Source of the DNA: Eledone cirrhosa
Lineage: Eukaryota
NCBI GenBank assembly: GCA_964016885.1
Contig: OZ024759.1
Span: 16,244,001 to 16,308,000, forward strand
Reading direction: 5' to 3'
Length of the DNA stretch: 64,000 nucleotides
Positions 2,917 to 64,000 of the stretch are shown piece by piece; positions within the stretch are counted from its first letter, which is position 1, and each line of letters opens with the position of its first letter. Made by a program: the position numbers and the translations under genes. The notes below the pieces were generated by a model that saw only the letters and a program-made list of their open reading frames with translations, was not told the DNA's origin and did not search any database.

Positions 2917-4404
2917 TTAGCCTTCAGTATGAGGACATACATGTTTAATTAAGTGACATGTTTGAGAAAATGATTTACCACAGATATCACAATGATATGG
3001 TCTCTCTCCTGTATGAATGCGTTTGTGTGTAGTCAAGTGACCTGATGCAGAGAAAGATTTACCACAGAATTCACAGTGATATGGTTTCTCTCCTGTATGA
3101 ATGCATTTGTGTTTAGTCAAGTGACCTGATACAGAGAAAGATTTACCACAGATATCACAGTGATATGGTCTCTCTCCTGTATGAATGCGTTTGTGTTTAT
3201 TTAAGACACCTGATGCAGAGAAAGATTTACCACAGATATCACAGTGGTATGGTTTCTCTCCTGTATGAATGCGTTTGTGTTTAGTTAAGTCACCTGATTC
3301 AGAGAAAGATTTACCACAGATATCACAGTGATGTCGTTTCTCTCCTGTATGAATGCGTTTGTGTTTAGTTAAGTCACCTGATGCAGAGAAAGATTTACCA
3401 CAGATATTACAGTGATATGGTTTCTCTCCTGTATGAATGCGCTTGTGTGTAGTCAAATGACCTGATTCAGAGAAAGATTTACCACAGATATCACAATGAT
3501 ATGGTTTCTCTCCTGTATGAATGCGTTTGTGTGTAGTCAAGTAACCTGATGTAGAGAAAGATTTACCACAGATATCACAATGATATGGTTTCTCTCCTGT
3601 ATGAATGCGTTTGTGAGTTGTTAGGGTGTGTGTTCTAGAGAAAGATTCACCACAGATATTACAGTAATATGGTTTCTCTCCTGTGTGAATGCGTTTGTGT
3701 TTCGTTAAGACATCTGATACAGAGAAAGATTTACCACAGATATCACAGTGATATGGTTTATCTCCTGTATGAATGCGTTTGTGACTAGTCAATTCACTTG
3801 ATACAGAGAAAGATTTACCACAGATATCACAATGATATGGTTTCTCTCCTGTATGAATGCGTTTGTGTCTAGTTAAGCCACTTGATACAGAGAATGATTT
3901 ACCACAGATATTACAGTGATATGGTTTCTCTCCTGTATGAATGCGTTTGTGTTTAGTCAAGTAACCTGATACAGCGAAAGATATACCACAGATATCACAG
4001 TGATATGGTTTCTCTCCTGTATGAATGCGTTTATGTTTAGTTAAGCCACTTGATACAGAGAATGATTTACCACAGATATTACAGTGATATGGTTTCTCTC
4101 CTGTATGAATGCGTTTGTGCCTAGGTAAGTCCCTTCGTCTACAGAAAGATTTACCACAGATATCACAGCGATGTGGTCTCTCTCCTGTATGACTGCATTT
4201 GTGTCTAGTTAATTCAGCTAATCTAGAGAATGATTTACCACAGATATTACAGTGATATGGTTTCTCTCCTGTATGAATGCATTTATGTTTAGTTAAACTA
4301 CCTGATGCAGACAATAATTTACCACAGATATCACAATGATATGGATTCTCTCCCATATTAATACGTTTATGGGCAGTGAAGTTACCTCTTGTAGACAATG
4401 GCAT
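2917..4404 (-). CDS. Tandem C2H2 zinc-finger protein, copy 1 (17 intact fingers plus 1 degenerate)
   Basis: 28-aa repeat C-x2-C-x12-H-x3-H with TGEKPY linkers. The track ORF 2917-4500 starts at GTG; the first in-frame ATG is at 4404. The ancestral N-terminal leader upstream (to ~4663) is frameshifted. Confidence 0.85.
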
Positions 4405-4949
4405 TTTACAGATAACACAGTGATACAGCTTCTTTCTAGTGTGAATAGATTTGTGAGTAGTTAAATTATTGGACAGAGAATGATTTATCACAGATATCAC
4501 AGTGATATAGCTTCTCTCCTGTGTGTATACGTTTGTGAGTTGTTAGATTATATGTTTTAGTGAATGACTTCTTACAGATAAGCAATGATAGGATGCTTTT
4601 TCTATCTCTTTCAACACCTCATCAGGGAAATCATTCTTTCTAGAATGATTCTCACATTTCCATAATTTGTCTTCTCTCACCTCACAATAAATATATAATC
4701 CTTTACATCTTATTATTAACAAGTATTTCTATTGTCATATTTCCACCAGTTGCGAATGATGTTGATACCTGAAGACAAGGAAGACACTATTGTATTATAA
4801 TTGGATTTCCAAACAGTGAAATAAAAAAGATTTGGCTATGAATCTTCCCGAGGGTAAATACTCCAAAGATTTATATAAAGGATTTTATATCTCTTCTGGT
4901 CTTTAAAAGATGATAAATATTCATGATTATACCAATGTTATCCAATACT

Positions 4950-61740: not shown

Positions 61741-64000
61741 TTAGCCTTCAGTATGAGGACATACATGTTTAATTAAGTGACTTGTTTGAGAAAATGATTT
61801 ACCACAGATATCACAATGATATGGTCTCTCTCCTGTATGAATGTGTTTGTGTGTAGTCAAGTGACCTGATGCAGAGAAAGATTTACCACAGATATCACAA
61901 TGATATGGTTTCTCTCCAGTATGAATGCGTTTGTGTTTCGTTAAGATATCTGATACAGAGAAAGATTTACCACAGATATCACAGTGATATGGTTTCTCTC
62001 CTGTATGAATGCGTTTGTGTGTAGTCAAGTAACCTGATGTAGAGAAAGATTTACCACAGATATCACAATGATATGGTTTCTCTCCTGTATGAATGCGTTT
62101 GTGTTTAGTTAAGTCACTTGATGTAGAGGAAGATTTACCACAGATATCACAGTGATATGGTCTCTCTCCTGTATGACTACGTTTGTGTTTAGTCAAGTGA
62201 CCTGATACAGAGAATAATTTACCACAGATATCACAGTGATGTGGTTTCTCTCCCGTATGATTGCGTTTGTGTTTAGTTAAGTCACCTGATGCAGAGAATG
62301 ATTTACCACAGATATCACAGTGATATGGTTTCTCTCCTGTATGAATGCGCTTGTGTGTAGTCAAGTCACCTGATTTAGAGAAAGATTTACCACAGATATC
62401 ACAATGATATGGTTTCTCTCCTGTATGAATGCGCTTGTGTGTAGTCAAATGACCTGATTCAGAGAAAGATTTACCACAGATATCACAATGATATGGTTTC
62501 TCTCCTGTATGAATGCGTTTGTGTTTAGTTAAGTCACCTGATTGAGAGAAAGATTTACCACAGATATCACAATGATATGGTTTCTCTCCTGTATGAATGC
62601 GTTTGTGTGTAGTCAAGTAACCTGATGTAGAGAAAGATTTACCACAGATATCACAATTATATGGTTTCTCTCCTGTATGAATGCGTTTGTGTGTAGTCAA
62701 GTATCTTGATTTAGAGAAAGATTCACCACAGATATCACAGTGATATGGTTTCTCTCCTGTATGAATGCGTTTGTGTGTAGTCAAGTGACCTGATGCAGAG
62801 AAAGATTTACCACAGAATTCACAGTGATATGGTTTCTCTCCTGTATGAATGCATTTGTGTTTAGTCAAGTGACCTGATACAGAGAAAGATTTACCACAGA
62901 TATCACAATGATATGGTCTCTCTCCTGTATGAATGCGTTTGTGTTTAATTAAGACACCTGATGCAGAGAAAGATTTACCACAGATATCACAATGATATGG
63001 TTTCTCTCCTGTATGAATGCGTTTGTGTTTAGTTAAATCACTTGATGTAGAGGAAGATTTACCACAGATATCACAGTGATATGGTCTCTCTCCTGTATGA
63101 CTACGTTTGTGTTTAGTCAAGTGACCTGATACAGAGAAAGATTTACCACAGATATCACAGTGATGTGGTTTCTCTCCTGTATGAATGCGCATGTGTGTAG
63201 TCAAATGACCTGATTCAGAGAAAGATTTACCACAGATATCACAATGATATGGTTTCTCTCCTGTATGAATGCGTTTGTGTGTAGTCAAGTAACCTGATGT
63301 AGAGAAAGATTTACCACAGATATCACAATTATATGGTTTCTCTCCCGTATGAATGCGTTTGTGTGTAGTCAAATGACCTGATTCAGAGAAAGATTTACCA
63401 CAGATATCACAATGATATGGTTTCTCTCCTGTATGAATGCGTTTGTGTTTAGTTAAGTCACCTGATGTAGAGAAAGATTTACCACAGATATCACAATGAT
63501 ATGGTTTCTCTCCTGTATGAATGCGTTTGTGTTTAGTCAAGTAACCTGATTTAGAGAAAGATTTACCACAGATATCACAGTGATATGGTTTATCTCCTGT
63601 ATGAATGCGTTTGTGACTAGTCAAATCACTAGATACAGAGAAAGATTTACCACAGATATCACAATGATATGGTTTCTCTCCTGTATGAATGCGTTTGTGT
63701 CTAGTTAAGCCACTTGATACAGAGAATGATTTACCACAGATATTACAGTGATATGGTTTCTCTCCTGTATGAATGCGTTTGTGCCTAGGTAAGTCCCTTC
63801 GTCTACAGAAAGATTTACCACAGATATCACAGCAATGTGGTCTCTCTCCTGTATGAATGCGTTTGTGTCTAGTTAATTCAGCTAATATAGAGAATGATTT
63901 ACCACAGATATTACAGTGATATGGTTTCTCTCCTGTATGAATGCATTTATGTTTAGTTAAACTACCTGATGCAGACAATTTACCACAGACATCACAATGA
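61741..64000 (-). CDS. Tandem C2H2 zinc-finger protein, copy 5 (at least 27 fingers, runs off the window)
   Basis: 745+ aa open frame of 28-aa repeats that shares diagnostic fingers with copy 3. Confidence 0.85.

Follow-up and report, generated by a model that had tools for sequence, protein, structure and literature searches.

A tandem cluster of zinc-finger-only genes in the octopod Eledone cirrhosa that probably diversifies in the manner of a PRDM9 array

Six-frame translation of the 64-kb window (i.e., the whole stretch of Eledone cirrhosa DNA analyzed here) revealed five minus-strand C2H2 zinc finger arrays in the form of long open reading frames (ORFs). Splitting the translations into 28-residue modules reproduced the finger counts given by an initial annotation of this DNA, namely, 17 (U1), 37 (U2), 30 (U3), 17 plus 1 (U4), and at least 27 (U5). 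More specifically, the U1 long ORF extends from its first ATG over positions 2917 to 4404 (one degenerate and 17 C2H2 fingers; Pfam zf-C2H2/zf-H2C2_2), that of U2 over 16796 to 19963 (one degenerate and 37 fingers), and that of U3 over 32229 to 34796 (one degenerate and 30 fingers, the latter comprising 28 canonical fingers and two shortened by a 3-bp deletion). The U4 array (48015 to 49580) holds one degenerate finger and 17 further fingers, followed by a premature TGA (48099 to 48101) and then the usual last finger, which is all that the stop costs. The U5 array (61741 to 64000) is truncated by the window edge and contains 26 canonical fingers and one shortened finger. Relative to U1, array length changes by +20 × 84 bp in U2, +13 × 84 − 12 bp in U3, and +84 − 6 bp in U4, in agreement with the earlier statement that length differences are multiples of 84 bp barring small deletions. 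The end fingers had been described as fixed, and this held for the last finger in all five arrays and for the first in the four with a visible start (U1 to U4, the complete arrays, each headed by a degenerate finger without the second histidine); the 3-bp-deleted form of the second finger, by contrast, was seen again inside U3, at position 10. All seven helices named as a recurring vocabulary were found, in 18, 12, 10, 8, 7, 4, and 3 copies.

The arrays are part of a tandem segmental duplication that spans the window (1 to 64000), with mosaic flanks and a unit period of 13.9 to 15.4 kb, as measured with the finger arrays masked. The flanks of the five units differ pairwise by 0 to 1.8%, which bears out their description as near-identical and, together with the 14- to 15-kb units, supports gene-level tandem duplication. 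In the 3' flank, 12 informative sites in a row group U1 with U5, and the next 13 group U1 with U2. The flanks of U3 and U5 differ at four sites in the ~6.75 kb adjoining the array, excluding one divergent patch and a variable-number tandem repeat (VNTR). This patch (17 differences between positions 29000 to 30000 and the corresponding U5 flank, within an otherwise near-identical block) resembles a tract converted from a U2-like donor.

Several other elements are carried by the units. An ordinary zinc finger (ZNF) pseudogene, arranged head-to-head on the plus strand with a TAG in finger 2, occupies 11096 to 11767, with other copies near 26807, 42161, and 56511; its fingers are 69 to 70% alike and their number is constant over its four copies, making it an internal control inside the same units, i.e., a diverged array without length change. 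A 49-bp VNTR is present in the four junctions (11761 to 13006, 27364 to 28452, 42718 to 43805, and 57068 to 57964; 25.4, 22.4, 22.4, and 18.4 copies, respectively). Its start (11761) is the point at which the last finger of the plus-strand gene breaks off, and it may have truncated that gene. A decayed LINE-type reverse-transcriptase fragment lies in the 5' flank of each copy (5343 to 6560 on the plus strand in the first; RVT_1, E = 2e-16 at 5343 to 5966), and a second decayed fragment was found at 10243 to 10906 on the minus strand (RVT_1, E = 9e-15 and 1.6e-9). Beside a LINE-like ORF, ~1 kb downstream of the array stop, is a lone C2H2-like finger (15531 to 15737, minus strand; Pfam E = 1e-4, below the cut-off). 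The SINE-like repeats of the window may be octopus-like.

The copies also differ by larger segments. A stretch of ~715 bp (401 to 1115) is found in four 3' flanks and is absent downstream of U4. A 1,127-bp insertion (46689 to 47815) is unique to the downstream side of U4, with a clean empty site in the other copies; read on the minus strand, it terminates in CTAG, preceded by a GC-rich stretch. It was inserted at an A|T site, no target duplication being seen, and contains a 37-bp VNTR (47037 to 47397). By these hallmarks we take it to be Helitron-like. In the U3/U4 junction, positions 39357 to 40724 stand in place of ~900 bp and carry a 70-bp perfect inverted repeat (39612 to 39681 and 40171 to 40240), as well as a reverse-oriented match of ~100 bp to the 49-bp VNTR unit; this latter match suggests that the VNTR derives from a dispersed repeat.

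The arrays had been proposed to draw, in reshuffled order, on a shared library of modules. We extracted 123 full 84-bp modules, of which 120 form the core set left after removal of the degenerate first fingers and of the finger containing the stop. These 120 modules represent 62 distinct sequences, and 31 of the latter, accounting for 88 fingers, are base-identical in at least two copies. Under greedy parsing, an exact match of at least 12 bp in another array was missing for only 72 of 10,398 array bases. U3 in particular is a mosaic, in which a 453-bp stretch matching U2 exactly precedes stretches of 444, 870, and 300 bp that match U5 exactly. Regarding finger order, we counted 74 distinct neighbor pairs among 127, whereas 5,000 shuffles averaged 109 and never fell below 100 (excluding U5, 69 versus 89), so fingers shift mostly as blocks and free combinatorial shuffling is contradicted. 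The shared library and the exchange of fingers within and between copies were thus upheld, whereas free reordering was not, and exchange was also detected inside fingers. Codon −1 (10 alleles) and codon +3 (12 alleles) occur in 31 pairs, of which a recombination-free history permits 21, and reassortment against −1 was also seen for module codon 2, which varies mainly by a synonymous CAC/CAT difference. As judged from these allele combinations, exchange inside fingers creates new −1/+3 pairings. The U3 and U5 arrays show no differing site in 20 aligned fingers, yet they are at least three finger-level events apart (one five-finger block and two single-finger changes); because their flanks are also near-identical, array rearrangement outpaces point mutation.

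Consistent with the earlier description of a homogenized scaffold with variation at the recognition helix, mean DNA identity among fingers was 87 to 90%, and 92 to 94% excluding the contact codons, and in each of the five subsets examined, the four most variable of the 28 columns were exactly −1, +2, +3, and +6 (probability by chance, 9e-5). Tree-based dN/dS is invalidated by conversion (available text of PMC5519329 and PMC3890296), and allele counts, column ranks, and simulation were used instead. When each codon allele was counted once, contact codons showed 28 nonsynonymous steps, i.e., 2.4 to 3.1 times the pooled synonymous rate, and zinc ligands showed no amino acid change versus 10 to 13.5 expected. 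Synonymous alleles were also raised in contact codons (8 on ~3 sites), where pN/pS was 1.1 to 1.3 by allele count and the pairwise nonsynonymous/synonymous ratio was 2.2 to 2.5. The comparison of contact and scaffold positions suggested by the initial annotation revealed a nonsynonymous excess at contacts: contact piN/piS was 3.63, a value unmatched in 569 concerted-evolution simulations with neutral contacts (three sets of 169, 194, and 206 runs, none of which reached it). The contact share of amino acid diversity, a published statistic, was 0.47, 0.57, 0.55, 0.54, and 0.55 for U1 to U5, respectively; 0, 1, and 41 runs of the same three sets attained 0.54, the 41 of 206 belonging to the set with a strongly constrained scaffold. 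It is the contact piN/piS ratio, and not the contact share, that provides the evidence for positive selection. The contact share of comparators had a median of 0.27 and was at least 0.54 in 4 of 369, all four SET/PR-bearing according to a precomputed Pfam column, although these comparators (all those with at least four arrayed fingers among 379 retrieved proteins) are top search matches, mostly vertebrate where named, and form an unfair octopod background.

Alleles private to one lineage (n = 23, with U3 and U5 treated as one lineage) comprised 17 nonsynonymous, 5 synonymous, and 1 stop, equaling neutral site counts (P = 1.0); the absence of mutations in ligand codons among them was borderline (P = 0.063). 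Contact codons held 4 of the 23 private alleles (P = 0.56), versus a ratio of 24 contact to 22 other among shared alleles (Fisher P = 0.051). A mutation hotspot at contact codons was rejected, as private mutations show no concentration there, and retention by selection fits better, because it is the shared alleles that concentrate at contacts. Recent relaxation of selection may be compatible with the neutral-looking private mutations.

We consider it reasonably probable that a finger-only gene has been copied in 14- to 15-kb tandem units, with its 84-bp modules rearranged by unequal exchange and conversion under selection for new contact residues, each copy having different predicted targets. 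This reading builds on what the sequence itself demonstrates, namely, duplication, modules shared base for base, mosaicism in arrays as well as flanks, hybrid fingers, the contact excess, and intact ligands. Once ~88% alike, the fingers would make the array behave as a coding minisatellite, in which mispairing in the 84-bp register, within or between copies, would cause blocks of fingers to be gained or lost, and short conversions or switches inside a finger would join one −1 residue to another +3/+6 residue. Selection would keep the zinc scaffold and favor new DNA contact residues. Translation would proceed from an internal ATG after a 3-codon upstream ORF (uORF), and the proteins would bind DNA, with a different set of sequences for each copy; the target may be a fast-changing one, e.g., transposons or satellites, a prior provided by the available text of PMC10547256. 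Change in array length as such needs no selection, because the 49-bp VNTR of the same units varies too.

The start region bears on whether the copies are still functional. A decayed ancestral leader with the first two fingers (4405 to 4665, minus strand), common to U1 to U4, is ~81% identical to the plus-strand paralogue; relative to the latter, every one of the four complete copies is frameshifted three times, by gaps of 8, 1, and 2 bp, and U3 and U4 have an additional 2-bp deletion. The old start now opens the three-codon uORF, and six AUGs, four of them within 4405 to 4665, precede the first in-frame ATG of the long ORF (the limits of the presumed last exon being inferred from an AG acceptor-like site). 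Because the ancestral start is frameshifted in the four complete copies, any protein would require an internal ATG behind six upstream AUGs. These shared frameshifts, the neutral-looking private mutations, the premature stop of U4, the dead plus-strand neighbor, and the neutral 49-bp VNTR that varies in step would all fit an alternative in which the finger library was shaped by earlier selection, the present copies being relaxed or silent pseudogenes whose rearrangement is neutral minisatellite turnover. However, although the leader lesions are older than the duplication, every ligand is retained across 121 fingers at a synonymous diversity of 13%, with no Cys/His loss and no frameshift. Furthermore, both indels that arose in the ORF after duplication are in frame (6 and 3 bp), the one upstream of the ATG being 2 bp, and the single stop removes the last finger only. 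The frameshift deficit in the 11 kb of ORF gave P values of 0.008 to 0.38 and was significant under one of four assumptions. We regard this pseudogene scenario as unlikely, albeit deserving of serious weight.

No KRAB or SET domain had been visible in the initial annotation, and our searches agree: tblastn with 116 N-termini, including those of PRDM9-like proteins, gave no SET/PR, KRAB, or SSXRD match outside the finger arrays of the 64-kb window, the sole non-array matches being those of one protein to LINE fragments, and Pfam identified no SET/PR or KRAB in 102 ORFs of at least 42 aa from one unit, a scope that stops short of very short exons and of exons beyond the window. The architecture found is finger-only, in a tandem cluster. 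In terms of scaffold identity, Octopus proteins (P0066, P0090, and P0101) ranked 1, 3, and 4 among the 379, with 0.86 for an Octopus ZNF versus 0.78 and 0.75 for mollusc PRDM9-like proteins. Contact share was 0.27 to 0.35 in three Octopus comparators and the plus-strand neighbor. In P0066 (Octopus sinensis), two helices are each repeated three times in the last fingers, a hint of homogenized arrays in other octopus ZNFs too. Homologue searches, including one with phmmer, found no close named homologue (best local identity, 57 to 62%), the leader alone as query had no match in such a search, and an atlas lookup gave generic C2H2 clusters.

PRDM9 orthology was rejected, given that SET/PR and KRAB had no match in these searches, the leader resembles the neighboring ZNF, and the scaffold is nearer to Octopus ZNF; the gene likely descends from an ordinary ZNF. 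The same three points weigh against the arrays being variable last exons or trans partners of an effector (SET/PR or KRAB-like) located beyond the window, in a form of multi-allele PRDM9-like targeting, and we consider such an effector very improbable, even though the contact share lies within the PRDM9 range, the sole comparators at 0.54 or above bear SET/PR, and a dead leader would be irrelevant if splicing entered downstream of it. It is likewise highly unlikely that some copies or array differences are assembly products (e.g., U3 and U5 as two haplotypes set in tandem, with flanks near-identical over ~7 kb), since other pairs are 0.4 to 1.8% apart with transitions forming about half to two thirds of the differences in most pairs, the ORFs lack homopolymer frameshifts, the 1.1-kb insertion of U4 is private to it and faces a clean empty site in the other copies, and, if U3 and U5 were alleles, the mechanism would hold for what was then an allelic VNTR.

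A bolder version of the selection model, which we offer as doubtful, would be an active SET-less "multi-allele PRDM9," i.e., several expressed finger-only proteins that use one finger pool, recombined down to single contact residues, in a Red Queen race with eroding or fast-changing targets (satellites, young transposons, or, through a trans partner, recombination sites). If true, octopods would have their own germline means of generating DNA-binding specificities, separate in origin from PRDM9 and KRAB-ZNFs. In homogenized finger arrays, a large contact-site share serves in the literature as a marker of PRDM9-directed recombination; the same signature occurs here in an unrelated domain-less family, among paralogues instead of alleles, and therefore either is not specific to hotspot erosion or is driven by another arms race. 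Cephalopods possess a thousand-plus C2H2 genes, the targets of which are an open question (available text of PMC12513265). The arrays represent a natural series of near-identical predicted proteins differing only in finger order and contact residues, and the idea of transposon or satellite targets is therefore directly testable.

Aspects of this cluster are known from other systems, as far as the portions of the sources cited here describe them. Among protein repeats with fast turnover, zinc fingers predominate (PMC3995336). The hemipteran ZF271-like/APEZ family (PMC6444547) is likewise KRAB-less, finger-only, and tandem, with 3 to 45 fingers per gene and tandem clusters of 4 to 8 genes with pseudogenes; it is an independent lineage, and its expression has been demonstrated, while the covered text gives no figures for module sharing or contact-site selection. 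The coleoid C2H2 expansion (PMC12513265, PMC10547256) shares clustered poly-C2H2 genes with our locus, and octopus ZNFs have been predicted to favor transposon sequence (PMC10547256); the covered text of these studies addresses gene number, expression, and generic contact-site entropy, whereas we describe finger-level concerted evolution. In the literature searched, which included few subscription papers and no supplements, we found no paper that describes cephalopod ZNF arrays as evolving in a PRDM9-like manner. Young mouse KRAB-ZFP clusters (PMC5363842, PMC12575710) resemble this one in segmental duplication, nonallelic recombination, interspersed pseudogenes, and transposon fragments, and their paralogues vary by duplicated or deleted runs of 2 to 7 fingerprints, finger-run differences being found here too. 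Unlike in those clusters, KRAB was not found at this locus and there is evidence of within-finger exchange; moreover, the arrays are more homogenized than nearly all vertebrate ZNF comparators, as reflected in the median contact share of the latter. With PRDM9 (accessible text of PMC5519329, PMC3890296, and PMC8600002), the cluster has in common the 84-bp coding minisatellite, the homogenized scaffold, −1/+2/+3/+6 diversity, a distinct first finger, a variable center, and template-switch hybrid fingers, which the within-finger reassortment matches (PMC8600002). The contact share of 0.47 to 0.57 compares with 0.41 to 0.78 for PRDM9 among the table rows listed; human PRDM9 fingers are mostly 1 to 4 bp apart, versus 87 to 90% DNA identity here. 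Unlike PRDM9, the cluster has no detected KRAB, SSXRD, or PR/SET, its arrays hold 17 to 37 fingers, it is kin to an ordinary neighboring ZNF, and at least five tandem copies use one finger pool; several PRDM9 paralogues coexist in cnidarians (bioRxiv 10.64898/2026.09.07.749791, in part). Judged by its arrays, then, the cluster mutates and diversifies like a PRDM9 array, yet is not a PRDM9. Finger-run duplication among paralogues was already known from mouse and KRAB-less clusters from Hemiptera; what this locus probably adds is PRDM9-style array evolution in a domain-less, octopod ZNF cluster.
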